Assembly (NCBI GenBank): GCA_965205025.1
Contig: CBDBFU010000023.1
Span: forward strand, 4,390 to 68,389
From: Candidatus Poribacteria bacterium
GTDB lineage: Bacteria; Poribacteria; WGA-4E; WGA-3G
Direction of reading: 5' to 3'
DNA: 64,000 bases
The notes below the pieces were generated by a model. It was not told the DNA's origin and made no database searches. It saw only the letters and a list, made by a program, of their open reading frames with translations. The translations under genes and the position numbers were made by a program. Positions within the stretch are counted from its first letter, which is position 1. Each line of letters starts with the position of its first letter. Shown in pieces: positions 2,425-59,746 of the stretch.

Positions 2425-2461
2425 CTAATTAACATCCTTTAAGGTTCTGACCAATTACAAT

Positions 2462-3095: not shown

Positions 3096-3156
3096 ATTTC
3101 ATCCTATAGATACTCTTGAATTGAGGTAGCTTCAAACAGACTTAAGGAAGACTCAT

Positions 3157-4119
3157 CTATTCTTGATTGAGCAATTTGATTATATGATTCATCTTTTCAA
3201 TCATTATCCACTTACGGTTATTCTGTTCAGCAACTACTGCTGTTGTACCAGTACCTGAAAAAGGATCTATTATGATGTCATCTTCGTTTGTACCTGCCAA
3301 TATAATCCTATTTAAGACTGATGTCGGTTTCTGTGAAGGATGTTTCCCGAATTGTTTTTCTGATTTTGGTGTAAGTGGTATTTCCCACATATTCCGCATC
3401 TGTTTTCCTTTATTCATCCCTTTCATAGTCTCATAATTAAATGTCCAATTCTTTGCCTTGGAACTTTCATTATTTACAGCCCAAATGATAAATTCTGTAG
3501 ATTCTGTAAACATCCGACAAGTAATGTTGGGTTGTGCATTTGGTTTATACCAAACCAGCTGAGAGATGATTCTTCTGTCAAATATATTCTGTAATATAAA
3601 TCCAATTGTAAAGATACAATGAAATGAGCCAAAAATGAATAGATTCCCATTAGTCTTTAGAACCCTGAGCACTTCTCTGATCCAATTAACCGAAAACTGA
3701 AAATACTCATCTTTTGAAAATATATCCCATTGTTCTTGCATTGTAATATGTGAACTAAATGCCCAACCTAACCCCTTTTTTTTTGACATATTAAATGGAG
3801 GATCGGTAATACAACAATCAAAGAAACTATCAGAGAATGTAGGTAGAATCTGAAGACAGTCCCCGGTAACAATCTGGTTTACAGAAGTATCTGTATCCTC
3901 AGTTGAGAAAAGGGTTGGTGAGTTACCATTCCCTTCATCAGAAGGCTCATTTAATAACCCTTGAATATTTTTTTGAATTTTCTGTGATGGGTTCATTGGG
4001 TGGATACCAGTAGAAAGATACTGAATCAAATCCGCCTTTTTTAATTTTGAATATCTTTTGAATCCGCGTATTCTTAATTCTTCTTTTATATCTCTGACAC
4101 GCATCTTATGATAGTCCAT
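3157..4119 (-). CDS. beta-class N6-adenine/N4-cytosine DNA methyltransferase with N-terminal SAP/Rho_N-like motif
   Basis: 320 aa. Motif IV TDPPFN (aa 105-110) precedes motif I FSGTGTT (aa 287-293), which is the beta permutation. The N-terminus RVRDIKEELRIRGFKRYSKLKKADLIQYL looks like a SAP/Rho-N helix-extended-helix. It lies 61 bp upstream of the MutH-like gene on the same strand. Confidence 0.8.
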   Translation of the reverse strand: MDYHKMRVRDIKEELRIRGFKRYSKLKKADLIQYLSTGIHPMNPSQKIQKNIQGLLNEPSDEGNGNSPTLFSTEDTDTSVNQIVTGDCLQILPTFSDSFFDCCITDPPFNMSKKKGLGWAFSSHITMQEQWDIFSKDEYFQFSVNWIREVLRVLKTNGNLFIFGSFHCIFTIGFILQNIFDRRIISQLVWYKPNAQPNITCRMFTESTEFIIWAVNNESSKAKNWTFNYETMKGMNKGKQMRNMWEIPLTPKSEKQFGKHPSQKPTSVLNRIILAGTNEDDIIIDPFSGTGTTAVVAEQNNRKWIMIEKMNHIIKLLNQE

Positions 4120-4246
4120 TGATTTAAAAAACTCCTGTCTTTATTGAATGGAATATAAGAAAATTACTAATGATTTTTATTTAGTTATATTCAATTTAAT
4201 GATAAAGAATCAAATTGAATTTTATGATACAGTAATTAGAAACTAA

Positions 4247-5101: not shown

Positions 5102-5998
5102 TTATGATGCCAAATCATCAAGCATTTGACGAATATTGTTTTCACCACTATCAATAAATAAAGGAGCTAAAGGTCCTCTACCATGTAAAGTTTGAAGCAA
5201 TGTATCAATCTGAATCATCCGTTGTTGAGAACTACGACATGCTAACCACTTTTTCACGAAATCACGTGCAGGTTTAGGATTACCAGTTCGAAGTGTCTGT
5301 GTACTCTTTCTCCATTCTTGCCACTTGAATTGAAACCCACAATTAGTACATGACAGTTTCTCATCTCTCTTTTTGAGACTTTTTCTATAAGCTTTCCATC
5401 TACGAATATAATTACAATCTATGCATTCTATATTTCCATTCCTATGAAAGGCTGTGCCAACACATTTAGGACAGGACAATGCAGATGAACGATTCTGTGT
5501 TTTGACTTTTTTCTCTCTTGGCTGTACCATAGGTCTACGAACAAGATTTCGGCAATGTGGACAGGGAAGTCTAACTCTCGTTCTTACAGATTGACTATAT
5601 GATTTCTTAGTCCAACTTTTACCACAATCACATTGATATTCGTCTGAGACTTGCAGTAGATTACCACAAGTAAAACAACGGGGTTTGTTTCTTAGTGCTT
5701 GTCGACAATCACGCCATAACAGTCTCTTAGAACAGTGTGGACAATTAAACCAATTCTCTTTTGTCCCACCTTCACCTGAACTGGATAATATATCAATCTG
5801 TCGTGGAACTTTAGATTTACATTGTGGACATGGTACACGACCATTTCTGTAAACATCAGCAACTGTTACAATATCACAACATCGATCATATAACTGCCAA
5901 CCTATATCGTATAATAGTAGATCGTCATAGACACCAATTTTAGCATACCTGTATAAACGACGTATTCTAATCGGTTTAACTCTCGGTGTCCAATTCAT
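5102..5998 (-). CDS. cysteine-rich multi-zinc-ribbon protein, function unknown
   Basis: 298 aa with at least seven CxxC/CxC pairs (CPQC, CPHC, CFTC, CDC, CPHC, CPKC, CIDC, CTNC) arranged as serial zinc ribbons, and very basic linkers. It starts 20 nt after the PIN-like gene stop on the same strand. Confidence 0.55.
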   Translation of the reverse strand: MNWTPRVKPIRIRRLYRYAKIGVYDDLLLYDIGWQLYDRCCDIVTVADVYRNGRVPCPQCKSKVPRQIDILSSSGEGGTKENWFNCPHCSKRLLWRDCRQALRNKPRCFTCGNLLQVSDEYQCDCGKSWTKKSYSQSVRTRVRLPCPHCRNLVRRPMVQPREKKVKTQNRSSALSCPKCVGTAFHRNGNIECIDCNYIRRWKAYRKSLKKRDEKLSCTNCGFQFKWQEWRKSTQTLRTGNPKPARDFVKKWLACRSSQQRMIQIDTLLQTLHGRGPLAPLFIDSGENNIRQMLDDLAS

Positions 5999-6018
5999 AT
6001 CTCAATTTCTTTATGTAT

Positions 6019-6393
6019 CTACAAAATTGGTAATCTTCGTACTCTAACGTTCCTATCATCAATTGTAATAACACAACCCTTGAATAAATGGTTCTCAATC
6101 GTAGGTAAAAGTTGCAATAGGGTTTGTGCGATCTTCTCAGGATCAGGTATAGATATACGAAATGTAATCAAACTTGGTTTACTATATCCACCTAATGCTA
6201 ATAACGAAGAAAAGTCTAAGTCCTGTGTGATAATCACTTGGTTATGTGTTTGTGCATACTCAAGGATTTGTTTATCTTCAGAATCCATAGGTAATATATC
6301 TGATACTCGATGAATATCCAATCCCTGTTTTCTTAATAATGTAACAGTCTTTGGTGACAAATTCATATCAACCAAGAAACTTAGCTTAGACAT
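6019..6393 (-). CDS. DUF5615 / Mut7-C-like PIN-fold putative toxin
   Basis: 124 aa. FLVDMNLSPKTV...LEYAQTHNQVIITQDLDFSSLL matches the DUF5615 family pattern. It lies 9 nt downstream of a DUF433 gene, which is the canonical pairing. Confidence 0.65.
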   Translation of the reverse strand: MSKLSFLVDMNLSPKTVTLLRKQGLDIHRVSDILPMDSEDKQILEYAQTHNQVIITQDLDFSSLLALGGYSKPSLITFRISIPDPEKIAQTLLQLLPTIENHLFKGCVITIDDRNVRVRRLPIL

Positions 6394-6402
6394 TCAGAAA
6401 TC

Positions 6403-6636
6403 CTATAGATTCTGTTCAAATTCAATAGTATAATCTGACACAACCCAAGCCGCATATTTCATTGCATCATAAATATCAGGAATTTCCAATTCGGGATACA
6501 TCTCTATAATGTCCTCACCGGTTTTCCCATTAGCTAATAGTTTAAGTATTACACTTACCGTAATTCGTGTACCTCGAACCACAGGTTGTCCAAGACAAAT
6601 ATTAGGATTGATATGAATCCGTTCTAATTTCTCCAT
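6403..6636 (-). CDS. DUF433-family putative antitoxin
   Basis: 77 aa. NPNICLGQPVVRGTRITVSVILKLLANGKTGEDIIEMYPELEIPDIYDAMKYA is the typical DUF433 signature. Confidence 0.7.
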   Translation of the reverse strand: MEKLERIHINPNICLGQPVVRGTRITVSVILKLLANGKTGEDIIEMYPELEIPDIYDAMKYAAWVVSDYTIEFEQNL

Positions 6637-9852: not shown

Positions 9853-11613
9853 ATGGAACAGGATAAATTGTTCCCTAATATAGCAGACAACGATGAACTG
9901 CCCTTAAAACTGGAGTTAATCAAACAGATTGGCTGGTTGGTGAAGCTTCGCTGGATAGCAATTGGAGGAGTGTTCTTCACGGTAACGGTTGCCAACTTAG
10001 CCCGTGATATGATCTCACATCCGTTACCTTTATATATCATTGCCAGTTTGATGGTGCTTTACAATTTTGAACCAAATATCCTTCGTAGAGCACCTGAAAA
10101 ACAACAATTGATGTCAATAAAAAGACAAGCAAGTATACACATTATACTTGATTTATTGTCTTTGATTGCTCTAATACACTTCAGTGGTGGTGTAGAAAAC
10201 CCATTTATCTTCTATTTCATATTTCATTTAATTATTGCAAGTATAATACTATCCAAACGTGTCAGTTACATTTTAGCCACTCTAAACACCCTCCTACTTA
10301 GTTCACTCATCTTTCTTGAGTATTTCGGTATACTCCATCACTATCATCTTAATAATTTTCTGCCAGAAAATCTTTGGCGTGATCCAATTTATATGTGGGG
10401 AGTACTTTTTGTATTTACGAGTACTCTCTTTTTTTCTGTTTACTTGGCAACAACCATTACACAGACAGCCAGGGAGAGAGAAGCGGAAACAAGAGAACTG
10501 AAAGAAAATTTAGAAGAAAAGGTCGATGAATTGGAAGAAATGAGAAAAGAGGTGGTCTTTGAAAGTAATAAACTACAATCTATAATTGAGTGTATGCAGG
10601 AAGGAGTTGTCTTTGTAGATTCGACTAATCAGACAACCCTATTTAACAAGGCAGCCCAACAAATCCAGAATGAAGAATCAAGTATAGATATAGATAATGA
10701 AAAACAGTTTGGAAGTTCAGAGACTCTTGACCAAATATCACAGGACTTTTCTGAAGGTGGGGATGCAATCGAAAGAAAAAACCTGAAAATAGGTGATAAA
10801 TATTTTGAAAACACTTATGCTGCTGTACGTGATAATGAAGAATTCTACTTAGGTACAGTACTTGTGTCCCGAGATGTAACAGACAGAAAACGTATGGAAC
10901 AACAGTTGATTTTTTCTGAAAAAATGGCTGCAATAGGTGAATTAGCTGCTGGAGTAGCACATGAAATCAATAACCCCTTAGATGGACTATTAAACTGTAT
11001 TCTAAGAATACAACGTAATCCCGATAATATCTCACAAACTCAAGAATACTTAGTCTTAATGGAAGATGCAATTCATCGTATGGAGGGTACAGTTGGTAAA
11101 CTTCTTGATTTCTCCCGCCCCCACGAACTCACATTAACTGCCATTAATATCAATGAAGTTGTTGATGAAACTGTGGCTCTATTATATTATAGTGCTACAG
11201 AAAAAGGAATAATGATAAAGAAAGATTTTCATGATGACATTTCTGATATACGTGGGGATAAACACCTATTAGAACAAGTCATCTTAAATTTGACATTAAA
11301 TGCTATAACAGCAATGCCAGATGGTGGAGATTTACTATTCCAAACTGGTGAAGCTCCAGCGGACACTTTGATCGGAAAACCAACTGTCTTTGTAAGGGTA
11401 ATTGACAGTGGAATTGGAATTTCAGATACTGTACAAGATAGGATATTTGATCCGTTCTATACTACACAGATAACTGAAAAAGGGACTGGACTGGGACTAT
11501 CAGTCTCTGACAGGATTATTAGACAACATCAAGGTGTCATTGAGGTAGAAAGTAAAGAAGGTTTTGGTTCAACATTTACAGTGAAATTACCTATAGTGGA
11601 AGTTCATTCTTAG
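9853..11613 (+). CDS. membrane sensor histidine kinase (multi-TM, PAS-like, HisKA, HATPase_c)
   Basis: 586 aa. Five or six N-terminal hydrophobic helices, H-box AAGVAHEINNPL, N-box LNLTLNAITAM, G1 DSGIGI, G2 GTGLGLSV. GAAGGA RBS before ATG 9853. Confidence 0.85.
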   Translation: MEQDKLFPNIADNDELPLKLELIKQIGWLVKLRWIAIGGVFFTVTVANLARDMISHPLPLYIIASLMVLYNFEPNILRRAPEKQQLMSIKRQASIHIILDLLSLIALIHFSGGVENPFIFYFIFHLIIASIILSKRVSYILATLNTLLLSSLIFLEYFGILHHYHLNNFLPENLWRDPIYMWGVLFVFTSTLFFSVYLATTITQTAREREAETRELKENLEEKVDELEEMRKEVVFESNKLQSIIECMQEGVVFVDSTNQTTLFNKAAQQIQNEESSIDIDNEKQFGSSETLDQISQDFSEGGDAIERKNLKIGDKYFENTYAAVRDNEEFYLGTVLVSRDVTDRKRMEQQLIFSEKMAAIGELAAGVAHEINNPLDGLLNCILRIQRNPDNISQTQEYLVLMEDAIHRMEGTVGKLLDFSRPHELTLTAININEVVDETVALLYYSATEKGIMIKKDFHDDISDIRGDKHLLEQVILNLTLNAITAMPDGGDLLFQTGEAPADTLIGKPTVFVRVIDSGIGISDTVQDRIFDPFYTTQITEKGTGLGLSVSDRIIRQHQGVIEVESKEGFGSTFTVKLPIVEVHS

Positions 11614-11623
11614 GAGGTTAGTG

Positions 11624-12967
11624 ATGAAAATTCTTGTGGTTGACGATGAAAAACTGAAATGTATGACACTTCGAGATGATTTAAGAGAATCTAATTATGA
11701 TGTCATTGCTGTTGAGTCACCCCTTATTGGACTTCAGCTATTGCAACAAGAACCATTTGATGTCTTGGTTACGGATTTACGAATGCCACAGATGCATGGT
11801 ATTGAATTTCTTAAAAAAGTGAAAAAAGAACATCCACATATTACTGTAATTGTAATGACTGCCTATGCAAGTGTCGAAACTGCTGTAGAGGCACTTAGAT
11901 TTGGGGCATATAATTACATTAAAAAACCATTCTCCAGTGGGGAATTAATCCTGATGTTGGAAAAGCTAAAATCGTTGAGAGGAAAAGCAGCTATTGAAGA
12001 TACATCAGAAAAGACAAATACAGATGAATCAGCACAAGAACAGTCTCTTTACCAAACACTGATAGGGAATAGTCAACAGATTCGAGAAATTTTTAGTCTA
12101 ATACCAAAAATATCAGCAGCCGACAGTAATATAATTATCTATGGTGAGGAAGGAACAGGAAAATCTCTTTTAGCCAAGACTATTCACTTACGAAGTACAA
12201 GAAAGCATGAACCCCTTGTAAGTGTAAACTGCTTTGGAATGACTGATGAGGTAATTGACAACGAACTATTTGGAATTGAGAATAGACAAGGAAAAATACA
12301 ATTAGCAAATAACGGTACTCTTTTTATAGCAAATATAGACTCAATACCATCTCATTTACAAGCCAAACTTTTATCTGTATTAGAAGATCAGATTCTGGAA
12401 TTGAATAATTCCAACAGAATTGATATTGATTTACGAATAATTTCTACTTCTCGTGAGAATATAAAAGAGAAAGTTAAACTGAATGAATTCATTGAAGATC
12501 TCTATTATCAGTTAAATGTCATACCTTTATTTTTACCCCCTTTACGCGAACGAAAAGGGGACATACCTATGTTAATTAATCATTTTTTAGATCTATTCTC
12601 ACCGAACCAACCGATTGGTATCGAACAGGATGCCGTAAATCTTCTTACAGAATATCCGTGGCCTGGGAATATTAGTGAACTTGAAAATATCATTGAACGT
12701 CTCGTGACCATAAATTCTGGTTCAGATATTACCACCGAAGATATTCCAATAGAATTGAAATTACCTACTCCCCAGAAGTTTGATCAAACATCTAATATTA
12801 CATCCTTTCATGACATCATAAAATCCACAGAACGAGAATTGATTTCCTGGGCAATGCGGAAGACTGAGGGAAACAAGACTCGGGCAGCACGTCTCCTTTC
12901 GATGAAACCTTCAACATTCCGTGATGCTCTTGCCAAACATTCAAGTCAAATTGATCTGGATAATTAG
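11624..12967 (+). CDS. NtrC-family response regulator with degenerate AAA+ domain (no GAFTGA, Walker B DE->AN) and Fis-type HTH
   Basis: AGGAGG at 11612-11617 favours ATG 11624 over the track start 11621. Receiver domain is intact (DD, VTDLRMP, KKPF). Walker A is GEEGTGKS. ELFG is followed directly by IENRQGKIQLANNGTLFIANID. C-terminal GNKTRAARLLSMKPSTF forms the HTH. Confidence 0.8.
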   Translation: MKILVVDDEKLKCMTLRDDLRESNYDVIAVESPLIGLQLLQQEPFDVLVTDLRMPQMHGIEFLKKVKKEHPHITVIVMTAYASVETAVEALRFGAYNYIKKPFSSGELILMLEKLKSLRGKAAIEDTSEKTNTDESAQEQSLYQTLIGNSQQIREIFSLIPKISAADSNIIIYGEEGTGKSLLAKTIHLRSTRKHEPLVSVNCFGMTDEVIDNELFGIENRQGKIQLANNGTLFIANIDSIPSHLQAKLLSVLEDQILELNNSNRIDIDLRIISTSRENIKEKVKLNEFIEDLYYQLNVIPLFLPPLRERKGDIPMLINHFLDLFSPNQPIGIEQDAVNLLTEYPWPGNISELENIIERLVTINSGSDITTEDIPIELKLPTPQKFDQTSNITSFHDIIKSTERELISWAMRKTEGNKTRAARLLSMKPSTFRDALAKHSSQIDLDN

Positions 12968-12978
12968 AGAACCATAGA

Positions 12979-13569
12979 ATGGATATTCTGGAGAAAAGGG
13001 ATTTAATACGATTTGAATCACTTGAGAGAAGAAAAAAACTGCCAACTGCAACTCGAGAATTATTTAGTAAGAAGATAACCACTCATATAATTGAATGGTT
13101 CGAGAGTCATGATAGTTTGGTTGAGAATGATTCTCCTAACGGAGTGATGGTTTATCTGAGCATGAAAAGTGAAGTGAATACTCAGGAGTTAGTAGATTAT
13201 CTATTAAATGCTGGTAAAACAGTCACTGCCCCTGTTGTTCATAATGATAGTGGTATGTTAATTCCCAAACGTTTCAATAATCTTACCTCGGATCTTGTTC
13301 AACACAGACTTGGGATGCTCGAACCAAATGAGAATTGTCCTGTATATCCAGTAACACATTTATCACATATAATAGTTCCTGGAATTGCTTTTGATATGGA
13401 TGGGTATCGGCTTGGATATGGTAAAGGCTTCTATGATAGATTTCTACCATCATGTCCGAATGCAAAAACAATCGGTTTGGCTTTTCATACACAACTCGTT
13501 GAGAATACATATCCTCAATCTTGGGATATACCCATGAAATATATATGTACTGAAAATGGTCTATTATAA
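12979..13569 (+). CDS. 5-formyltetrahydrofolate cyclo-ligase
   Basis: 196 aa. The IIVPGIAFDMDGYRLGYGKGFYDRFL motif is diagnostic of the 5-FCL family. Confidence 0.8.
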   Translation: MDILEKRDLIRFESLERRKKLPTATRELFSKKITTHIIEWFESHDSLVENDSPNGVMVYLSMKSEVNTQELVDYLLNAGKTVTAPVVHNDSGMLIPKRFNNLTSDLVQHRLGMLEPNENCPVYPVTHLSHIIVPGIAFDMDGYRLGYGKGFYDRFLPSCPNAKTIGLAFHTQLVENTYPQSWDIPMKYICTENGLL

Positions 13570-13892
13570 GTATCCAATTCACAGGTAATGGGAGTATCAT
13601 TGTAATGGATTGGATTGCATGACATTTTGGACATTTCATATATATATTTCTATGAAATATTTACTATATCATTATGGATTCTAAAGTTTATTAAAAATAG
13701 TCAAGAAGTAGTTGAATATTTTTTTGCATGTGTTATGATTCCATAAATTGATACGATGCGGTGTGAATAAATGTCTTGCTGATTCGAATGCAATTATTTA
13801 GGTAACACTCTTCTTTTGTATCAACATTTGGTTGACCTTCAAATTGTTTCTTAAGGATTTCATACATAATATAATTACAGGAGTTTATAACC

Positions 13893-14432
13893 ATGAAAAA
13901 ATTGAATGTTTTATCTTATATTTTACTCTTTTTACTTTCAAGTTCATTACATTTTTCTTCTAATGCTGAGATGAGATCTAAGGGTAGTGGAGGTAAGAAT
14001 AATCCAAACGTATTCGGCCATGTCTATATAAGTGTTAACCCATATATTACATGGATGAATGGAGTTCCTACTATGTCTATGACAGATCATAGATATAGTG
14101 TTTATAACTTTGCAGCTAAAAGTTGCAATTACGAATACGAGTATAAACAATGGTTATCACATTATGATAATGTAAAGAAAGAAACAGGAGATAATATAAA
14201 TGAGGATAAAGGATGGGGTAGTGGTAAGTTAGAGCCAATTGATGAAGAAGATAACAATTGGCCTGATTACTATTCCGGTGATACAGGTTTCCAAAATCAC
14301 TATCTTCCTGACTACAATCTTACGGTTGGATGGTGGTATGTAGTCGGAGGTTATACCCGACTTGTAGTAGAGAGTCGTAAAGGTTCGGATTCATGGGAAG
14401 TATATTCGGATGATTTAATTTTTCAATGGTAA
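13893..14432 (+). CDS. secreted hypothetical protein
   Basis: 179 aa. N-terminal signal peptide MKKLNVLSYILLFLLSSSLHFSSNA and an AGGAG RBS. No family recognised. Confidence 0.5.
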   Translation: MKKLNVLSYILLFLLSSSLHFSSNAEMRSKGSGGKNNPNVFGHVYISVNPYITWMNGVPTMSMTDHRYSVYNFAAKSCNYEYEYKQWLSHYDNVKKETGDNINEDKGWGSGKLEPIDEEDNNWPDYYSGDTGFQNHYLPDYNLTVGWWYVVGGYTRLVVESRKGSDSWEVYSDDLIFQW

Positions 14433-14501
14433 TATATTGACTAACGGTAAATCTTCTACTATTATATTGAATTAGGAATTTATTTTTATTAATAGGATAA
14501 T

Positions 14502-15521
14502 TTGATGACATTGAGATACTTATTCAGTTGTTTGTGTTTATTCTTACTTACCACGTTTGTATCTGCAAAGATACTTTTTGACTCTACCCTCGGAACAACT
14601 TTTACTCCTGGAAAAGATTGGGACTATAATATCTTTATGATGAACGATGATGGTAGTGGTATCCGAAAACTCACAGACACTCCATTTTTAGAAATAAGTC
14701 CAAGGTGGGCACCTGATGGAAAAGCTATTGCTTTTGTGAGAGACCTTGATATCGCACTGACTACGGTTAGGCAAACCGATCTATTTATAAAATCTATAGA
14801 GGGAAATTTCGAAATTAGACTCACTCATCACCCAAAACAAGATGGTGGAGATATAGCGTGGTCCCCTGATGGAAGATTTATCGCTTTTGTAAGTACTCGG
14901 AATGGAAGTTTAGAGATATATAAAATAGATGTAGCAAGTCTCGTAATAACACAACTAACTAACAATGCATTATTAGGTGGTTTATCTGCTGCCCCAGATT
15001 GGTCTCCGAATGGAGAGCAAATTACTTATGAACAAGGTGTGCCAGGAATTGGAAGAACAATCTATATTATGGATGCTGATGGTAGAAATCAGAAACAACT
15101 TATTCAGCCAAACCAGCTTGTAAGATTTAGTCCACGATGGTCGCCAGATGGTGATACGATCCTTTATGGTGAAACTGAATTTAAACTTATTCCTAGAAAA
15201 CGGATTATAGTAGCAGTAAGTCTTGTGATTTATAACTTAGAGAGAAAAGAAATTCAGTTAATTATCACAATTCCTAATCGGTATAATATCAGTAAAATGT
15301 GTTGGATAGCCCCTGGTCATGAGATAGTTTTTAGTGCAAATAACACTGAAACAAACGGAAGAGGTATTTTTCGTTACCATATTGGAAGTAAACAATTGAC
15401 TAAACTCACTGATGGTCCAGAAGGAGGCGTTTATGTAGATTGGATAGAGGATGTAGCATTAGATGCGACACCTAACGGCAAACTGTCAATTCAATGGGGT
15501 CAACTCAAACGTAGTAATTAA
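14502..15521 (+). CDS. TolB-like PD40 beta-propeller secreted protein with C-terminal KLSIQWGQLK tag
   Basis: 339 aa, signal peptide. Repeated PD40 signatures: SPRWAPDGKAIAF, IAWSPDGRFIAFVS, PDWSPNGEQITY, SPRWSPDGDTILY. Confidence 0.75.
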   Translation: MMTLRYLFSCLCLFLLTTFVSAKILFDSTLGTTFTPGKDWDYNIFMMNDDGSGIRKLTDTPFLEISPRWAPDGKAIAFVRDLDIALTTVRQTDLFIKSIEGNFEIRLTHHPKQDGGDIAWSPDGRFIAFVSTRNGSLEIYKIDVASLVITQLTNNALLGGLSAAPDWSPNGEQITYEQGVPGIGRTIYIMDADGRNQKQLIQPNQLVRFSPRWSPDGDTILYGETEFKLIPRKRIIVAVSLVIYNLERKEIQLIITIPNRYNISKMCWIAPGHEIVFSANNTETNGRGIFRYHIGSKQLTKLTDGPEGGVYVDWIEDVALDATPNGKLSIQWGQLKRSN

Positions 15522-15530
15522 TAATTCAAA

Positions 15531-15700
15531 CAGGACTTACGCATTTTCACCTATAGTTCCTTGGATAAGGAAGGTTACAGTGTAATACCATTTTCAATTG
15601 ATACACTTACATTATGAGTCCCGTAGGGACGAAATGTCTATAGAAAACGGGTTAATCCATTATCCTGAGTCCCGTAGGGACGGAATGTTTATATAATACC
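15531..15700. repeat. solo IS-type terminal repeat followed by hairpin-repeat modules
   Basis: CAGGACTTACGCA at 15531-15543 equals the IS/MITE terminus, but no matching right end is present. Then TTCCTT-GGAT-AAGGAA (15557-15572) and two GAGTCCCGTAGGGACGRAATGT units starting at 15616 and 15667 (51-bp spacing). Confidence 0.7.
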
Positions 15701-15798
15701 TTTTAAACTAAATTGGCTTTTCCAATCTTCTATTAAGGCAAACTAATTAAGTGAAATTGGTATAACATTGTACATTACCAGTTTATCAAGAATTAATA

Positions 15799-16230
15799 TT
15801 AATCAACACCTATATACGGTTTTATCTTATCCAAAGTCTTCTCCCCGATACCTTTAACTTCTGTGAGATCCTCAATAGTCTTGAAATCTCCATTCTCCTT
15901 CCGATGTTGAACAATCCGTTTTGCCATTTGAGGACCAATACTTGGTAGTGTCTGAAGTTCTATTACTGTAGCAATGTTAATATTCAGTAGTGAAGGTTTC
16001 GGTTGTTTCTCTGTCGTATCTTTTAACTGATGAGGTCTTTGTGTTGTAGTTTCTTCATTTGGAACTGCAATTAAATCTGGTTTACCAAGAAATAATGCAG
16101 GATTATATCTTCGAATTCCCCAAAAAACTGTTCCAAGTAAAATCATTATTAAAAGGAATATTACTGCACGAAAATAATGTCTTGAGACAATTCCTTCAAT
16201 TTTAGATTGATTATCTTTTTCTTGATTCAT
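15799..16230 (-). CDS. comEA: ComEA-family helix-hairpin-helix DNA-binding competence protein
   Basis: 143 aa with an N-terminal membrane anchor. The C-terminal LNINIATVIELQTLPSIGPQMAKRIVQHRKENGDFKTIEDLTEVKGIGEKTLDKIKPY is the ComEA HhH pair. Confidence 0.8.
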   Translation of the reverse strand: MNQEKDNQSKIEGIVSRHYFRAVIFLLIMILLGTVFWGIRRYNPALFLGKPDLIAVPNEETTTQRPHQLKDTTEKQPKPSLLNINIATVIELQTLPSIGPQMAKRIVQHRKENGDFKTIEDLTEVKGIGEKTLDKIKPYIGVD

Positions 16231-16236
16231 AGATTT

Positions 16237-16364
16237 ATACCATTTCTGGAAATTTAGGTCTCATTAATAGAACCTCTTATATGTAGCACAAACTTCCAGT
16301 TTGTGTAGTATTTCAAGACATAAATATCACCTAATCATGGAAGAATCATATATAGGAATGGTAT
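16237..16364. mobile_element. simple family-A MITE (128 bp)
   Basis: ATACCATTTCT (16237-16247) / AGGAATGGTAT (16354-16364) with the central hairpin CACAAACTT-CCAGTTTGTG. It fills the whole comEA-pduO intergenic gap. Confidence 0.75.
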
Positions 16365-16367
16365 TAA

Positions 16368-16910
16368 TCATGTCTTCCAGATTGGTTCAGATGAATTTGA
16401 TCTTTTGTTCACTACTCTTGCAACTACAAACAGTAGATCAGATAGTCGATTTAGGCATATAATAATTTCAGGATTAATATCAAACTCTTTTGATAGTCTA
16501 ACAACACACCGTTCAGACCTACGGCATACTGTTCGTGCTAAATGTAAGAGTCCACCTGCATTACTTCCTCCCGGTAAGATAAAGTTTGTTAGTGGTGGTA
16601 ATTCCTCTGACAGAGTATCAATACACCTCTCCATTTCTAAGGTAAAATCACCTGTAATACGTATCTCAGAGGATTTTGTATGTGATTCAGGAGTTGCTAA
16701 GTCAGCACCAAGGGAAAATAGGTGATTTTGAACTCTTTCTAATATCTCAGATATATCCGATTCTTCTATTAATGTATTCGCATAACCGATATATGCATTC
16801 AATTCATCCACTGTACCTATTGCTTCGATTTGTAATGTGTCTTTTGAGATACGAGATCCACCAAATAACGCAGTTTCACCAGTATCACCGAATTTTGTAT
16901 AGATTTTCAT
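16368..16910 (-). CDS. pduO: PduO-type ATP:cob(I)alamin adenosyltransferase
   Basis: 180 aa. MKIYTKFGDTGETALFGG...IEAIGTVDELNAYIG is the canonical PduO-type N-terminus. Confidence 0.85.
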   Translation of the reverse strand: MKIYTKFGDTGETALFGGSRISKDTLQIEAIGTVDELNAYIGYANTLIEESDISEILERVQNHLFSLGADLATPESHTKSSEIRITGDFTLEMERCIDTLSEELPPLTNFILPGGSNAGGLLHLARTVCRRSERCVVRLSKEFDINPEIIICLNRLSDLLFVVARVVNKRSNSSEPIWKT

Positions 16911-41361: not shown

Positions 41362-41740
41362 TTAGTTTTCGATTGAATCTTCATGTATTATATGTGTAGA
41401 TGATTTAAGCTTATGTGTGATAAGTGCGTACAAACTGATTCCTGTCCTTGAAGCTTCATTTGTTAAGGCATAAAATAAATCCGGTTCAATGGGTATATTA
41501 TATGGTCTAACGTGCCCATTTTTTAATGTAGGTTTTGGAATATGTTCTCCATCGTTTGCATAACATTCTTTCATTAATTCCCATGCACTCTTTAACTCTT
41601 CTAACGCTTCGTTAGGCGTAGATCCGAAAGCTGAGACCATTAGGAAGTTCTACCAGATGTGCCAAGTAATCACCATCCTCATCATAAAAGACATTTACTA
41701 TGAAACCATCAAAATCATCGGAATTATTCTTCATTTTCAT
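41362..41740 (-). pseudogene. hicB: HicB-family antitoxin, one frameshift
   Basis: MKMKNNSDDFDGFIVNVFYDEDGDYLAHLVELPN (from 41740) continues as VSAFGSTPNEALEELKSAWELMKE... (ORF 41362-41640) if one G of the GG at 41637-41638 (CC on + strand) is removed. The start overlaps the hicA 3' end by 17 nt. Confidence 0.65.
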
Positions 41741-41951
41741 TCTCCAAAGCATAATGTTTGAGAAATTGTCGGACTTGATACCCTTTTGCCATAGATTTAT
41801 TCGGTTGAATAACCAAACGGAACCCATTCGGTGAGTACCATATACGATGGCTACCCTTCTGCCGGCGTTGAGTCCAGTTATATTGTTGAAGTAGTTGTTC
41901 AAATTCTCGAAATTTTAGTCCATTAGGATTTCGATGTGCCTTGTTAATCAA
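41724..41951 (-). CDS. hicA: HicA-family mRNA interferase toxin
   Basis: 75 aa. KFREFEQLLQQYNWTQRRQKGSHRIW contains the HicA GSH core. Confidence 0.75.
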   Translation of the reverse strand: MINKAHRNPNGLKFREFEQLLQQYNWTQRRQKGSHRIWYSPNGFRLVIQPNKSMAKGYQVRQFLKHYALENENEE

Positions 41952-53420: not shown

Positions 53421-53501
53421 ATTCTTTGTTCCAAAGCAACTTTGTAGATAGAGAATAATACCAAATGTAAACATTCCATCAGAGTTAATAAAGGAGAAAA
53501 T

Positions 53502-54461
53502 ATGAAGATTGGATTTATTGGTGTTGGTGGTATAGCAGGAAATTATAGAGGAAGTCTAAAAAGACTGAATAAACCTATTAGAGCTGTATGTGATATAAAT
53601 GCAGATAGAGCAAATTCAATTGCCTCTGACGAAAATGCCACATCCTATACAGATCACCAAGAAATGTTGGATAAAGAGAAACTGGATGTGGTGTTTATCT
53701 GTATTCCTCCTGGAGCACATACTACACAAGTTGCAGATTCAGCAAAATCGGGTGCTGCAGTTTTTGTTGCCAAACCGATTGCCCCAAATCATGAGGTAGG
53801 CAGAAATACCAGTGATGCAATTGCTGAGTCTGGTGTCATCAATCAGGTTGGTTATATGGCAAGATATAGTGATATTACCGATAAAGCAAAAGAATTAGTT
53901 GGTGATAATCCACTTACCATGGGCATAGGTAGATTTCTTTGTAGAATGGGAGCAAGTCATCCTTGGTGGGGTAAATTTGATATTTCTCTTGGTCAGATGG
54001 TAGAACAGACTACCCATGTTTTTGACCTAATACGTTATTTTCTTGGAGATGTTCAAAGTGTACAGGCATTCGGCATCAAAGATGTATCAGGGGATATTGC
54101 AGACTTTGAAGAATGTACTGTGTGTAACCTCAAATTCAGTAGTGGTGCAGTAGGGAGTATTACAAGTACATGTGCTGCACGGGCACATGATCATTTTGCT
54201 ACCGAGTTGTTAGGAGACGACATATATCTCAAATTAACACATGATTTAGGGTTACGCGGACAAATTAGAGGAGAAGGGATCACCTACAATGGAGAGGAAG
54301 CAGGATATTTTCGTCAAGTAGAACAATTCATCAAGGCAGTTGAAGCAAACGATCAGAATATAGTTCGTTCTTCTTATGCTGATGCATATAAAACTCTTGC
54401 TGTAACACTTGCTGCGAATAAGTCCTTGGAATCTGGAAATGTAGAAAGTGTAATAGAATGA
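53502..54461 (+). CDS. Gfo/Idh/MocA-family oxidoreductase
   Basis: 319 aa, AAAGGAG RBS. MKIGFIGVGGIAGNY Rossmann start. Confidence 0.8.
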   Translation: MKIGFIGVGGIAGNYRGSLKRLNKPIRAVCDINADRANSIASDENATSYTDHQEMLDKEKLDVVFICIPPGAHTTQVADSAKSGAAVFVAKPIAPNHEVGRNTSDAIAESGVINQVGYMARYSDITDKAKELVGDNPLTMGIGRFLCRMGASHPWWGKFDISLGQMVEQTTHVFDLIRYFLGDVQSVQAFGIKDVSGDIADFEECTVCNLKFSSGAVGSITSTCAARAHDHFATELLGDDIYLKLTHDLGLRGQIRGEGITYNGEEAGYFRQVEQFIKAVEANDQNIVRSSYADAYKTLAVTLAANKSLESGNVESVIE

Positions 54462-54674
54462 AACAATTTACTGAAACTATATTACAGTTACATGCCTCTC
54501 ATATAAGATGTAGGAGGAACTTAATTTATCGTCTTATTAATTTAACCAATACTTGTGCAATATTACCTTTATAACCACAGCGAGTTGTATTAATTGGATA
54601 ATCTTCTCCTCGAAATGTAATTCTTGATTTTTTTAGCTTGTCTCGTTGTACTCTGTGTAAGCTACCTCCATGTA

Positions 54675-55055
54675 CTAAATAGGTACAAGGTCTATTTCAA
54701 CTGTATTTGGAGTGTAGTGGTCTGCAATTCTTGCTCCAGTCTGTAATTGAAGTACTGCTTCAGATGCATCAACATCACCTCGTTTTAATTCCAAAGGGAC
54801 ACCAATTAGACAATTCTTCACATCATCAATATGAAATAAGATGAAATCACATTGGTTGCTTCTCGCTTTGTCTGTGGGATAAGCTTTATCTACATCTAAT
54901 ACTACACGGTTTACAGGTTTAGACCTTAGATTAGCCATTGAAACGGTACATCCTTTTCTGGTATAGGATTTTGCATTACTGTTACCTACCCATTTCTTTA
55001 TCTGATTAAGTGTATCAATTGGATTCACTACGACTCTTGCCTTTCTTTCTCTCAT
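54675..55055 (-). CDS. small PD-(D/E)xK-like putative nuclease, partner of the upstream ATPase (possibly frameshift-truncated; extended frame reaches 54526)
   Basis: 126 aa. CDFILFH...(19 aa)...PLELKRGD fits D-x(n)-E-x-K. The start overlaps the ATPase 3' end by 41 nt. After the TAG stop (54675-54677), another frame stays open for 50 codons (LVHGGSLHRVQRDKLKK...VLVKLIRR, stop 54526-54528). One extra T in the T-run would fuse them. Confidence 0.55.
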   Translation of the reverse strand: MRERKARVVVNPIDTLNQIKKWVGNSNAKSYTRKGCTVSMANLRSKPVNRVVLDVDKAYPTDKARSNQCDFILFHIDDVKNCLIGVPLELKRGDVDASEAVLQLQTGARIADHYTPNTVEIDLVPI

Positions 55056-56475
55056 ATCGTTGTTGAAGATTTACAGTACGGTTGTATAGTCCTTCAGCAA
55101 CATCCTCATAATCCTGTGGGGAGATACCTTCTATAGATTTAAATGGTATCTCTTTCACTGTTTCGTTCTTTTGAAAATGCCATACGCCTACTTCTTCAGG
55201 CACTAACCAACAATCAGATTTATCCGAATTTTCATCAATTAATCCTTCAAGAACAAGGTTTCCTATTTCCTGGAGCAACCAATCACTATGTGTTGTTGTT
55301 ATAACTCTAACACCAGCTCTAACAAGATATGCGAGTATCACAGCCATGTCTGCTTGTGCACCTGGATGAAGATGAGCTTCTGGTTCTTCTATGATTAGTG
55401 TATCTCCAGGATTAAGAATTCCTCTAATAAATAAAACAACTGGAGCTAATTCAATCACCATCGATGATGATTGGCTTAACGGTATGTCTTTTTCACTCTC
55501 ATTAAAGGTATACCGTACATCAGGATTGCCACTAACAGATGATTTTAACTGGATTTTACCTTGTAGTATCTTGTTTTCTAATATTCCAGCAATATAATGC
55601 ATATCACTGTCAATATTTTTGTTTTCTTCATATAGAATTATCTTAGCCAAGAAATCCGTTAGAACACTTGACATCGTAGGTATATTAGATAATTCTTCGA
55701 CACCTATACGTGTAGTATGTCTAACCATAGAACTTGCAATCACTCTGTGACTTTGCATTAGACCACTACGTGCGCCAGGAAGATAATATCGACAATGTTT
55801 TCTTCCTTCAATAGTAATTTCTGACTTGCCTTCATGTTCTGGTAAGATGATGGTTATAGCATGATTCTTAGGGATTAAAACCTGTTCATCACTTGATGAA
55901 TAGGTCAAATCCAAATCAGATTCATCTGAACCTAAAGAATGCATACTTATATTCCAATATATTTTATTGTCTGACTCAATTTTTAACGAGATTGACATAG
56001 GATTATGTTGTTTTTTTAACACTCGATTAAGATTTGAAATTGAATCTAAATCAAAGCAATTTATGAGTTCTTCTTGTAAAGTCTTTTTAAAGGAATCTAT
56101 AGTAAAATAATTGTGTATACTTTCATGCATACTTTTTGGAAGATCCGATAATAAAAATGATCTGTCAATCATTGCCATTTTCCGTTGGATAATGTGCTTT
56201 TCTTCTTTTAACAAATCTTGACCATTTAATAATTCTCTCAGTAAAGGTTCAAGACTACTTGGTTCAGAATTATAGATTAGATTTGGACCTGTAAAGTCGT
56301 TAAATACTCCATGCAGAACATACATCAAGGTGGCAAGATATGTTTTTCCAGTATTACTCGGACCAACAAACACAGTCAAGGGACGCAGATCAATGTTGGC
56401 TTCGTGAATTGGTCCAAAATTTTTGACTTCAATACCTATCTTCAATTCTTGACTGGAGTCTTCTTTCTTACTCAT
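55015..56475 (-). CDS. ABC-type (AAA_15/AAA_21, OLD/RecF-like) ATPase, putative defence-system motor
   Basis: 486 aa, AAGGA RBS. Walker A VFVGPSNTGKTY, signature-like LSQSSSMVIELAP, Walker B/D-loop TLIIEEPEAHLHPGAQ, H-loop ITTTHSDWLL. Confidence 0.75.
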   Translation of the reverse strand: MSKKEDSSQELKIGIEVKNFGPIHEANIDLRPLTVFVGPSNTGKTYLATLMYVLHGVFNDFTGPNLIYNSEPSSLEPLLRELLNGQDLLKEEKHIIQRKMAMIDRSFLLSDLPKSMHESIHNYFTIDSFKKTLQEELINCFDLDSISNLNRVLKKQHNPMSISLKIESDNKIYWNISMHSLGSDESDLDLTYSSSDEQVLIPKNHAITIILPEHEGKSEITIEGRKHCRYYLPGARSGLMQSHRVIASSMVRHTTRIGVEELSNIPTMSSVLTDFLAKIILYEENKNIDSDMHYIAGILENKILQGKIQLKSSVSGNPDVRYTFNESEKDIPLSQSSSMVIELAPVVLFIRGILNPGDTLIIEEPEAHLHPGAQADMAVILAYLVRAGVRVITTTHSDWLLQEIGNLVLEGLIDENSDKSDCWLVPEEVGVWHFQKNETVKEIPFKSIEGISPQDYEDVAEGLYNRTVNLQQRYERKKGKSRSESN

Positions 56476-56538
56476 GTTTGTCCTTTACAATAATCTTCCC
56501 AAATCATTAATTTACAAATACGATATATAATTTAACAC

Positions 56539-57909
56539 TTAAAAAAATGTAAGATACGGTTTGCCTTCTATCTCGCGGAGCAACAATAGTGCAAGTTCTC
56601 TTCCATGATAGTCTCCCCACATAGATGCCTCTCCACATGGTATTTTTCTATCTTCTGGAACATAGTCCCACCCGTTGGGTCTGTGATATACTGAATGAAG
56701 AAGTAAACCTTGATGTGTTTCTGAGGCTGATAAATAGGGTTCATCAAAGAGAGTGTTTGCTACTGTTAAACCAGCTTGGTAGTATTTGGAACTTGATTCT
56801 TCTTCACCATGTTTTGAAAGGAAGTTCCCATATCTAATTAACCCTTGTGCCGCGATTGCTGCAGCAGAACTATCAACGGGTTCATAATCATTGTATGGTT
56901 CGGACGGAATTGATAGGTAATCTCCTAATTCAACCAGACCCGGAGCCCCTGTATCCCAGTAAGGTATTCCATCCTGTGCTGTGTTCTCAATGAAGAAATC
57001 TGCAGTTGCTTCAACTGCTTTCCTCATATGGGATGTCACTTCGAACTTCCCACCAAAAGAATCAAGGTCATCATCAGACAATGTATCAAAAAACTCAAGC
57101 TGCTCTGCATAACCTGTTATAATCCATGCTAAACCACGAGTCCAGGTAGAAAATGGGGAATAACCTTGTTGTGTACTGGGACATCGGTAATTTCCATCAT
57201 TAGTATTGAAGATAGATTCATGAACTACCCGTCCCCGAATATCAAAAGCATCACGACCTTCACCGTAGTAAACATTATACTTAGCAGTTGTTTGAGAATG
57301 TTGGATTAACCGTTCCAATAAGTTTATTGCTACATCACCTTCACCCATAAGGACAGCCCCAAGTGTATGTCCTATAGCTAATACACGTAATGAACGTATG
57401 GTATCTGAGAATAAAGAATGTGGTCCGTTGAAAGAAGCAATATAACCTGCTCCATCCTTAATCTCTGTCCATCGACTCGCTTGTACGGCTGCTGAAGATT
57501 TCAAAGCAATTTCATAAAAGTGCATTTCATTTTCATCAGTTGGGATAACACCTTCCCGCATAAGTCGACAAAGATTACCATAAGTGGAGACGTTATTAAA
57601 CCCGTGATCATGTACGCCAATATGTGTAACATGTGGATGCATTTTTTCAATAGTGTTCCGTCTTCCAATTTCTAAGAATTGTTCATCCCCAGTTGCATCA
57701 TATTGAAGAATAGCAGATCCAAATTGAAATCCTTGCGTCCATTCTGTCCATCCTCTGGTTGTGTATGTACCAGCAACTGTAAAAACAGGTGTGCCATTTT
57801 CTGGTAGCCAAGTGTCTTCAATTGACAATATTTTTTCACCTGAAAACTCAAAAAACCTGTCTATTTTGGTTTTCAGATCATGTATCTTTAATGAATTGTT
57901 TATCTTCAT
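56539..57909 (-). CDS. GH88-like unsaturated glucuronyl hydrolase ((alpha/alpha)6 barrel)
   Basis: 456 aa. The TRGWTEWTQGFQFG and GVHDHGFNN motifs resemble the GH88/GH105 catalytic region. The family call was made from motifs only. Confidence 0.5.
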   Translation of the reverse strand: MKINNSLKIHDLKTKIDRFFEFSGEKILSIEDTWLPENGTPVFTVAGTYTTRGWTEWTQGFQFGSAILQYDATGDEQFLEIGRRNTIEKMHPHVTHIGVHDHGFNNVSTYGNLCRLMREGVIPTDENEMHFYEIALKSSAAVQASRWTEIKDGAGYIASFNGPHSLFSDTIRSLRVLAIGHTLGAVLMGEGDVAINLLERLIQHSQTTAKYNVYYGEGRDAFDIRGRVVHESIFNTNDGNYRCPSTQQGYSPFSTWTRGLAWIITGYAEQLEFFDTLSDDDLDSFGGKFEVTSHMRKAVEATADFFIENTAQDGIPYWDTGAPGLVELGDYLSIPSEPYNDYEPVDSSAAAIAAQGLIRYGNFLSKHGEEESSSKYYQAGLTVANTLFDEPYLSASETHQGLLLHSVYHRPNGWDYVPEDRKIPCGEASMWGDYHGRELALLLLREIEGKPYLTFF

Positions 57910-58588: not shown

Positions 58589-59746
58589 ATGAATAAGAAA
58601 AAGACATCCATTCATCAATCGTTACCTATATGCATGCTTGGTGCTAATGGACATGGTAAGACTACGTTAACAACTGGTATGGAAAGAGTCGTTGAAAAAA
58701 TTGGAACAATTCGTTCAGATACCAATACTGATTTTGCTGATCAGTTGCCAAATCACCACCAGATATGTGAAGGAGTTGGTTTTACTTTTCGATCTATTGA
58801 CTATGAAACAAGCGGAAAACACTATACACAGATAGATTGTAATACACATCAGGATATAATAAAATTATTAGTTAGTGGTACTCTGGATATTCAAGGTGCA
58901 ATATGGGTAGTCGATGCAGATGAAGGTGTAACGCCAGAATCTGAAGAACTGGTTTATATTGCCAATCGTGTTAAAGTATCCAATATTGTATCATTCTTAA
59001 ATATTCATAATACCGATGACAGTGAGTTAGTAAATATCTGTCAACATGAAATGAGAGAATTACTCACTGAATGTGGATGGAATGAGAATAATTCACCAAT
59101 ATTAGTTGGTGATGCACATAATACATTAAACTATAAAACTGTAAATTTGGGTTCAGACCAATGGAAACCTATCGTTGATACCATTTCTGCATTAAACAGC
59201 ATAATGCCGGATCCAATTGATAAATCACATCTTCATCTGGTTTTACCTATACATGAAATTGTGAAGGAAAGTAAAGAGACTGTGACATTTTCAGGTGAAT
59301 TAATACAAGGTCATCTTTCTGTAGGTCAATCCATTGATATTGTTGGCAAAGGAGACAGGGTTAAAACAAAATGTTTAAATATTAAAGAAGATGAAATAAC
59401 AGTAGAATCTGAACCAGACTGGTTATCTGTTGGACAGGTTGTATGTTCCCCAAAGACTATAAAAGCACATACAGAATTTATAGCTATTGTTTATTTACTA
59501 AGCCAGGAAGAAAGCGGAACACATATCCCTATAATTCAAAATGATAAGCTTGATATCCACCTATGGGGTATAGATGTTCATGCACGTGTTCAACTTCCAC
59601 CAGAACTATCAATCATATCTCCAGGATCAAATTGTGAGCTTTCTATTTACCTTGATCTTCCTCTTGTGATGGAAGTTGGTACAACATTCGAAATAAAAAA
59701 GATGGATCTGAGAATCGGTTTGGGAATCGTAACAGAAGTTACATAA
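58589..59746 (+). CDS. divergent EF-Tu-like protein with degenerate GTPase motifs
   Basis: 385 aa, collinear with EF-Tu domains I-III. P-loop GANGHGKT is kept. Switch I RGITI is replaced by EGVGF, DCPGH by DCNTH, NKCD by NIHN, and SAL by DAH. Domain III blocks KAHTEFIAIVYLLSQEESGTHIP and RIGLGIVTEV are conserved. Confidence 0.75.
   Translation: MNKKKTSIHQSLPICMLGANGHGKTTLTTGMERVVEKIGTIRSDTNTDFADQLPNHHQICEGVGFTFRSIDYETSGKHYTQIDCNTHQDIIKLLVSGTLDIQGAIWVVDADEGVTPESEELVYIANRVKVSNIVSFLNIHNTDDSELVNICQHEMRELLTECGWNENNSPILVGDAHNTLNYKTVNLGSDQWKPIVDTISALNSIMPDPIDKSHLHLVLPIHEIVKESKETVTFSGELIQGHLSVGQSIDIVGKGDRVKTKCLNIKEDEITVESEPDWLSVGQVVCSPKTIKAHTEFIAIVYLLSQEESGTHIPIIQNDKLDIHLWGIDVHARVQLPPELSIISPGSNCELSIYLDLPLVMEVGTTFEIKKMDLRIGLGIVTEVT

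Follow-up and report, generated by a model that had tools for sequence, protein, structure and literature searches.

A stretch of 64,000 nucleotides (nt) from a Candidatus Poribacteria bacterium (GenBank assembly GCA_965205025.1, contig CBDBFU010000023.1, positions 4,390 to 68,389 of the forward strand), hereafter the window, contains two overlapping minus-strand genes that form a candidate anti-phage system. The larger gene encodes an ATPase of the OLD-like ATP-binding cassette (ABC) type, and the smaller one encodes a protein with the PD-(D/E)xK nuclease pattern, its reading frame being interrupted by a frameshift. The features are listed in Table 1, and all coordinates are those of the window unless another locus is named. 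A preliminary description of this DNA had presented the pair as an inserted cassette and as a candidate defence system of an undescribed flavour.

Table 1. Features of the ATPase–nuclease locus in the window
Feature	Position	Strand	Basis and remarks
OLD-like ABC ATPase gene, intact, 486 amino acids (aa)	55015–56475	minus	Open reading frame (ORF) table, Pfam, PADLOC
Overlap of the nuclease and ATPase genes, 41 nt	55015–55055	minus	3' end of the ATPase gene and 5' end of the nuclease gene; translational coupling
Nuclease gene, 5' part, 126 codons	54675–55055	minus	D54/D56, C69-D70, E89-L90-K91, Q103; closed by a premature TAG
Nuclease gene, 3' part, 50 codons in another frame	54526–54678	minus	Rest of the last core strand and the conserved C-terminal module
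Frameshift site CCT ATT TAG	54675–54683	minus	One base missing between 54679 and 54678 (DNA alignments)

The ATPase

The length of the overlap between the two genes depends on the start codon of the nuclease gene: it is 41 nt from ATG 55055 and 14 nt from GTG 55026–55028, and both values, given already in the preliminary description, agree with the ORF table. The four ATPase motifs noted there were all located in the 486-aa protein, namely Walker A (GPSNTGKT, residues 38–45, with K44), the signature (LSQSSSM, residues 333–339), Walker B (LIIEEPEAHLHP, residues 360–371, with EE363-364) and the H-loop (TTTHS, residues 393–397, with H396). Further, an arginine-type Q-loop, YLPGARSG, is seen at about residues 231–238 (R236).

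The protein belongs to the OLD-like ABC ATPases (AAA_15/AAA_21), as had been proposed. Pfam AAA_15 is matched at 7.8e-27 with 95.3 bits (cut-off 32.1) over residues 15–400, and AAA_21, a family whose Pfam label is 'putative AbiEii toxin, Type IV TA system' (TA, toxin–antitoxin), at 3.2e-11 with 44.3 bits (cut-off 27). The sole match among PDB sequences is 6p74, of the OLD family, and NCBIfam yielded nothing informative for either the ATPase or the small protein. The best PADLOC models are PD-T4-4_A (1e-33), PDC-M47A (6.2e-29), AriA (7e-28) and NsnB (2e-27), all of them matched partially, over the two ATPase lobes; Old (3e-12) and GajA (2e-10) follow.

The nuclease family and its predicted fold

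The small ORF carries C69-D70 (in CDFILF) and E89-L90-K91 (in PLELKRGD), and the conserved C-terminal module lying beyond the frameshift consists of H134, Q137, FRG at 148–150 and PINTxRC at 154–160, in the numbering of the protein obtained by repair of the frame. A profile search among 1.84 billion representatives assigned to the family 1169 clusters at E ≤ 0.001 and 688 at E ≤ 1e-10, counted at 50% identity; the members are usually 155–170 aa long. Across 128 diverse members, near-invariance is seen at C36, C69-D70, E89-L90-K91-G93, Q103-L104, G107, P125 and C160. Three cysteines, C36, C69 and C160, are thus invariant or nearly so in this set; they might bind a metal or a cluster, like those of Cas4.

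The repaired 176-aa protein has no significant match in PADLOC or Pfam, and the profile of the family found zero matches among PDB sequences even at E = 10. Neither a Toprim or DUF4435 domain nor an HNH domain was found in the small protein with Pfam and PADLOC, in agreement with the preliminary description, which had set the partner apart from those of the named systems by its PD-(D/E)xK pattern. The latter assignment is in keeping with the motif set and, more weakly, with the predicted fold. In the PD-(D/E)xK superfamily the core elements follow the order alpha-beta-beta-beta-alpha-beta, D being carried by strand 2 and (D/E)xK by strand 3. The AlphaFold2 model of the protein (predicted local distance difference test score 81.8, predicted TM-score 0.82) has such an alpha-beta-beta-beta-alpha-beta core, in which D70 belongs to strand 71–77, E89-x-K91 ends strand 82–91, and Q103 lies on helix 97–114. 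The leading Foldseek matches in the PDB, although weak, are all PD-(D/E)xK nucleases: EcoO109I, Bse634I, Can2, Cdn1, Card1, HamA, Hjc and N.BspD6I. A Foldseek search against viral predicted structures produced weak mixed matches only. The model hence supports, though it does not prove, a nuclease-like PD-(D/E)xK fold of the small protein.

The frameshift in the nuclease gene

The 126-codon ORF closes at TAG 54677–54675 inside CCT ATT TAG (54683–54675), while a stop-free frame of 50 codons goes on from 54678 to 54526; the assembled letters at the site are CCTATTTAG. It had been surmised that one extra base would fuse the two frames into a protein of about 176 aa, and the homologues bear this out: about 100 of them, 164–176 aa long and each a single protein, span 95–100% of the repaired 176-aa sequence, the best one (P0001, 174 aa) being 71% identical. 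The junction is ungapped in the protein alignment, DLVPI|LVHGGSLHR in the window corresponding to DLVPVLVHGGSLHR in the homologues.

The same is seen in the DNA. Two relatives have one base more at the shift, CCTATCTTA versus CCTAT-TTA in the window; these are locus L001, the 71% relative, and locus L005, the closest relative, with an ATPase 90% identical to that of the window. In the longer alignment, CCTAT-TTAGTA of the window stands against CCTGTCTTGGTC in L001 and CCTATCTTAGTA in L005, and the window is exactly one base short. The codons at this place are CCT GTC TTG in L001 and CCT ATC TTA in L005. The nuclease gene of L005 is a single open frame across the 166 codons present on its contig, and 38 of the first 40 residues encoded by the 3' part in the window are the same in L005. 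The nuclease gene of the window therefore has a deletion of one nucleotide at about 54678/54679 (codon 126/127), or the assembly is in error there.

The assembled product stops within the last core strand (residues 126–129 in the AlphaFold2 model) and loses H134, Q137, FRG and PINTxRC. Since the effector is truncated inside this strand, the system in the window is probably inactive as assembled. In comparison with L005, the ratio of nonsynonymous to synonymous substitution rates (dN/dS) is 0.14 for the 5' part of the nuclease gene, 0.28 for the 3' part (four changes only) and 0.18 for the ATPase gene. The ratios being low on both sides of the shift (0.14–0.28), the lesion is recent, or else an assembly error, and the nuclease gene was under selection until recently.

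We lean towards a genuine mutation. Alternatively, the base may have been lost in sequencing or assembly, in which case the organism itself would have a whole 176-aa nuclease and a functional system; to this explanation we give a lesser, still appreciable weight. It agrees with the absence of stops in the 50 downstream codons and their similarity to the closest relative, with the low dN/dS on either side, and with the position of the missing base at a short T-run. However, this run is three bases long only, and since the other genes of the syntenic block of about 12 kb are full length in comparison with the relatives, the assembly is not obviously indel-prone at this locus. Moreover, the nuclease is independently broken in five other Poribacteria species (see below), which indicates that natural decay is common here. 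A programmed ribosomal frameshift tuning the amount of the nuclease would explain why the downstream frame is intact and conserved, yet it is highly improbable. Canonical frameshift sites are of the X XXY YYZ or the prfB type, and on inspection CCU AUU UAG is not such a slippery site. None of the relatives is shifted at the same position: the two relatives compared at the DNA level and every homologous protein in the alignment keep a single frame at this point, and the other broken copies are disrupted elsewhere in the gene. With the shift seen in no relative and the slippery site absent, programmed frameshifting was rejected.

A check of the window for further split genes gave one candidate: two short minus-strand ORFs at 41362–41640 and 41612–41902 (92 and 96 aa, overlapping by 29 nt, without a Pfam match) may be another split gene, bearing on assembly quality or genome erosion.

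Relation to WonAB

The WonAB system, described in the WASA-1 prophage of Vibrio cholerae, pairs an OLD-like ABC ATPase with a 16-kDa nuclease of a variant restriction endonuclease (REase) fold (Adams et al. 2025, PMC12137116). Its authors linked it to PD-T4-4 and to an operon named 'OLD-ABC ATPase + novel REase', which occurs in 0.96% of genomes (PMC12137116; Krishnan et al. 2020, as cited there). The protection is abortive and translation-arresting and requires both genes, the ATPase motifs and K71 of WonB; the K71A substitution in WonB abolishes both defence and toxicity. At that, WonB is toxic only alongside active WonA and is Lon-labile, DNA remains intact as translation halts, and the C-terminal extension of WonA is predicted to hold WonB (PMC12137116).

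We took WonB and novel-REase sequences from Supplementary Tables 4–5 of PMC12137116 and used eight of them in hhalign. The broad nuclease family aligned with them at 96.7% (E 4.4e-10, 103 columns), and D54/C69-D70/E89-L90-K91/Q103 of the protein considered here were paired with D40/C52-D53/E69-L70-K71/Q81 of WonB. With the hidden Markov model of the nuclease family, the novel REase from Corallococcus scored 29.2 bits and WonB of V. cholerae 24.2 bits. Hence the protein is homologous to WonB and the novel REases and keeps the catalytic residues, the homology being that of a superfamily and not of close membership. For the ATPase family, the alignment with WonA (97.0%) reaches residue 470 and includes the C-terminal extension, which at about residues 400–486 is aligned with that of WonA. 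The QLQxG motif, typical of the present clade, occurs in no sequence of the examined part of Supplementary Tables 4–5 of PMC12137116, and an exact search of IMG/VR for the published wonB quantitative PCR primer found nothing.

Both systems are operons of two genes, one for an OLD-like ABC ATPase and the other for a small nuclease with the variant REase fold, which is predicted in the present case. In the window the genes are adjacent and co-oriented, and the pairing recurs in every other context read. The order of the nuclease motifs, D ... CD[FYW] ... ELK ... Q, is the same, with K91 here equivalent to K71 of WonB, and both ATPases have an arginine-type Q-loop (PxxRS) as well as the alignable C-terminal extension. 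On the other hand, the ATPase considered here is about 90 residues longer than the compared WonA of 394 aa, and the region between the lobes remains unaligned. The nuclease exceeds WonB by about 35 aa (176 versus about 140 aa) and has the FRG...PINTxRC module, to which nothing in WonB corresponds. Pairwise identity is low, 24% in the C-terminal lobe for the ATPases, and the similarity of the nucleases is visible by profiles only. Finally, WonAB is prophage-borne, whereas the Poribacteria pair is chromosomal and syntenic, with a putative anti-phage activity.

Relation to PD-T4-4, PDC-M47 and other ATPase systems

PD-T4-4 of E. coli ECOR58, denoted 'ATPase, nuclease', is 1973 bp long, and its protection against T4 has been demonstrated by experiment (Vassallo et al. 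2022, PMC9519451, Tables S1–S2). Its effector is classed as PD-(D/E)xK by reviews and a 2025 preprint, and the purified complex cleaved none of the 11 DNA substrates tested (bioRxiv 10.1101/2025.07.10.664194). The total length of the pair in the window is close to that of PD-T4-4 (1.95 kb versus about 1.97 kb), both are composed of an ATPase and a PD-(D/E)xK nuclease (a predicted one in the window), and PD-T4-4_A is the best PADLOC model of our ATPase. By hhalign the ATPase family matched PD-T4-4_A at 99.2% in the C-terminal lobe, with 35–38% identity; in the comparison with a bona fide member, the identity of this lobe is 35%. However, the PD-T4-4_A match in the window amounts to 115 bits in two partial stretches, compared with 614 bits over positions 1–474 of 474 for the member encoded in NC_048066. 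The nuclease cores align on CDF / [DE]LK / QL, but the window protein, truncated or repaired, gives no hit to PD-T4-4_B. Among its 36 close relatives one matches this model (E 0.023), and 7 of the 128 family members reach E ≤ 0.01; hhalign of the broad family with the single bona fide PD-T4-4_B gave 78.7%.

NC_048066 is a P2-like Vibrio phage (locus L003) with a full-length PD-T4-4 pair at its positions 2116–4147, between the repressor and integrase genes (PD-T4-4_A, 6.4e-185 over the full length; PD-T4-4_B, 6.5e-18). The pair is annotated merely as an AAA family ATPase and a hypothetical protein.

PDC-M47 is a candidate system of PADLOC-DB v2, for which a literature search found no paper. PDC-M47A is the second-best match of the ATPase, and the PDC-M47B model PDLC04668 is the commonest match of the nuclease family, reached at E ≤ 0.01 by 65 of the 128 members (best 1.4e-7). 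The matches in the window are nonetheless weak and partial: the 126-aa fragment matches PDC-M47B at E = 0.045, and the repaired protein is unmatched. PARIS (AriAB), Gabija, Septu and OLD use ATPases of the same superfamily (AAA_15/AAA_21) and share the logic of an ATPase sensor and a nuclease effector, but their effectors are Toprim/DUF4435 or HNH, whereas the present pair has as its effector a small protein of its own, of the PD-(D/E)xK type.

From these comparisons, the 486-aa protein appears to be a sensor or motor like WonA and PD-T4-4_A, and the nuclease family seems weakly related to PDC-M47B and PD-T4-4_B. Full-length matches of both genes to a named system, which the preliminary description had set beforehand as telling against novelty, were not found. 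Hence the pair is best grouped, by homology, with WonAB, PD-T4-4 and PDC-M47 in one superfamily of systems, as a separate clade of a known kind and not as an annotated member of any of them. Of the earlier claim, the defence-type ATPase–nuclease pair is supported. The undescribed flavour does not, because an OLD-like ABC ATPase with a small REase-fold nuclease has already been described (PMC9519451, PMC12137116), the architecture being shared by PD-T4-4, WonAB, the novel-REase operon and PDC-M47.

Conservation and decay of the pair in Poribacteria

In a scan restricted to a single genome of each species, 29 loci were identified, every one of them in a metagenome-assembled genome of Candidatus Poribacteria. 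The gene order, comprising the GH88-like gene (456 aa), the ATPase, the nuclease and the convergent Gfo/Idh/MocA gene, is the same in at least 25 of the 29, and EF-Tu-like, cytidylyltransferase-like, HisA-like and AcrB-like genes form a wider synteny common to the relatives. Mobile-element genes are not found next to the pair, and there is no marked GC anomaly. Given the same gene order and the wider synteny across Poribacteria, the pair was not inserted recently; it appears to have resided at a single chromosomal site for long, with vertical inheritance. The label of an inserted cassette is therefore misleading, as at least 25 further species of Poribacteria share this arrangement.

The position between the two neighbours was given correctly. 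The Gfo/Idh/MocA assignment is firm (Pfam, 2e-19), but the 456-aa neighbour (56539–57909, minus strand) matches Glyco_hydro_88 below the threshold (21.7 versus 26.6 bits, one short stretch), so that a role of the latter in sugar metabolism is weakly supported by its sequence.

Identity to the window proteins is 75–87% for the flanking genes, 46–55% for the ATPase and 51–64% for the nuclease. Such rapid divergence is typical of conflict genes. The overlap of 41 nt was likewise called in L001. In loci L011–L033, considered as stop-to-stop frames, the nuclease frame opens at about 2986–3001 and the ATPase frame closes at about 3004–3041 in nearly all cases; the two frames do not overlap in L019.

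Both genes are seen in 27 of the 29 loci. The nuclease is broken in five species, at differing positions (L034, L035, L036, L038 and L039; about 3001–3530 in each). In the first four it is frameshifted, and in L039 about 63 alignable residues are left. L034, L035 and L039 retain an intact ATPase gene; that of L036 is split by about 1.25 kb, and L038 has none. With the window included, this makes six independent lesions of the nuclease, a pattern that would fit a costly or toxic effector.

The slot beyond the Gfo/Idh/MocA gene is variable. In several related Poribacteria a further ABC ATPase of about 425 aa (AAA_21), accompanied by a DUF4276 protein (213 aa) or a 50-aa ORF, is situated between the Gfo/Idh/MocA and AcrB-like genes (L008, 9608–11537; L002, 9679–11108; L007, 10759–11561), whereas the window has at the corresponding place (53421–53501) a gap of 82 bp only. 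As this adjacent slot carries a second ATPase–DUF4276 pair in relatives, it looks like a variable defence slot, and the region like a small defence hotspot in a conserved backbone.

Outside Poribacteria, the ATPase and the nuclease are likewise paired in all contexts read, so that orthologues keep the nuclease partner, as the preliminary description had expected. These family members are located in defence-type neighbourhoods. The neighbours in L006 are an M78 peptidase, DUF4325, AbiJ_NTD4 and DUF1156, and those in L009 are a protein combining AAA and S8 protease domains, another SMC/AAA_15 ATPase and a transposase.

Several other features of the region were observed. In L001, the closest of the long relatives, an additional gene of the RDD family (5373–6470) separates the GH88-like gene from the ATPase, and DDE transposases and a type I restriction-modification set (11188–16525) lie past the Gfo gene. 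In the window, 58589–59746 (plus strand) encodes a 385-aa EF-Tu-like paralogue, in which Pfam recognises GTP_EFTU and domain 3 only; it is syntenic in the long-flank relatives L001/L002 and L007/L008. A promoter and terminator scan of 54300–56750 produced fewer promoter-like sites than in shuffled sequences and no terminator, and Rfam identified zero RNA families in the whole window.

Possible function of the pair

Taken together, the locus is probably an anti-phage module of the WonAB, PD-T4-4 or 'OLD-ABC ATPase + novel REase' kind, made up of two translationally coupled genes, of which that for the nuclease is frameshifted. By analogy with WonAB, the ATPase would dimerise and bear the nuclease on its C-terminal extensions. 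The dimer would serve as the sensor and licensing factor: a cue from the phage, combined with the binding or hydrolysis of ATP, would license the nuclease, which would then cleave cellular nucleic acid, RNA of the translation apparatus being a likelier target than the chromosome, and the cleavage would abort the infection. This model of ATPase-licensed cleavage of RNA or other nucleic acid is suggested by the requirements of WonAB, the intactness of DNA in that system and the inactivity of PD-T4-4 on DNA.

Several observations weigh against such an assignment. Defence by the present clade is predicted from sequence. The ATPase matches PD-T4-4_A and PDC-M47A in part, at its N- and C-terminal lobes only, with scores close to those of the generic AriA or AAA_15 model. 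The homology to WonB and PD-T4-4_B is visible at the profile level only, and the window nuclease has no significant PADLOC or Pfam match, be it truncated or repaired. The Foldseek matches in the PDB have a best E of 8.5e-3 (all above 1e-3) and TM-scores of 0.31–0.38. The stable lineage-wide synteny, the absence of adjacent mobile genes and the near-native GC content are atypical for a defence system. Finally, the effector is truncated as assembled.

Some of these observations would be expected if the Poribacteria pair were a domesticated housekeeping module, acting for example in DNA or RNA repair or surveillance, and not an immune system. The pair resides at the same site in at least 25 of the 29 species representatives, most loci lack an adjacent integrase or transposase, GC is near that of the flanks, and dN/dS (0.14–0.18) indicates purifying selection. 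We nevertheless consider this unlikely: the divergence of the pair is far more rapid than that of its flanks, five of the 29 species and the window have a lost or broken nuclease, both proteins are homologous to those of experimentally validated defence systems, relatives elsewhere occupy defence-type neighbourhoods, and the second ATPase–DUF4276 pair in the adjacent slot points to a small defence hotspot. A toxin–antitoxin addiction module, in which the ATPase merely neutralises a toxic nuclease, would be consistent with a small operon of two overlapping genes, with the AbiEii label of AAA_21, and with the preferential loss of the nuclease as a toxic product. This is very unlikely, however, as the homologous WonB is toxic only with active WonA, which rules out simple sequestration (PMC12137116), and as the locus is chromosomal, syntenic and off mobile elements.

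Returning to the anti-phage module, one may tentatively suggest that a WonAB-type abortive-infection system has turned here into a vertically inherited, fixed-site core locus of the Poribacteria, which outlasted the divergence of the species and has a repeatedly decaying effector, and that the FRG...PINTxRC module, the family having three near-invariant cysteines, could change the target or the regulation compared with WonB. If true, the pair would represent a distinct, lineage-entrenched subtype, rather than another mobile defence-island pair.

Implications

The type of the nuclease partner is already known, and two members of the architecture, PD-T4-4 and WonAB, have been experimentally validated. 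The comparison places a large unannotated family, 1169 clusters without a Pfam entry, in the WonB/novel-REase nuclease superfamily, which would improve annotation of defence genes in metagenomes. As a practical matter, the copy in the window is probably non-functional as assembled. The mode of evolution seems unusual: in sponge-symbiont Poribacteria the pair is held at one site and diverges faster than its flanks, the effector being lost repeatedly and the ATPase mostly kept. The broken copies thus form a natural series for considering the cost of abortive-infection effectors in symbionts.

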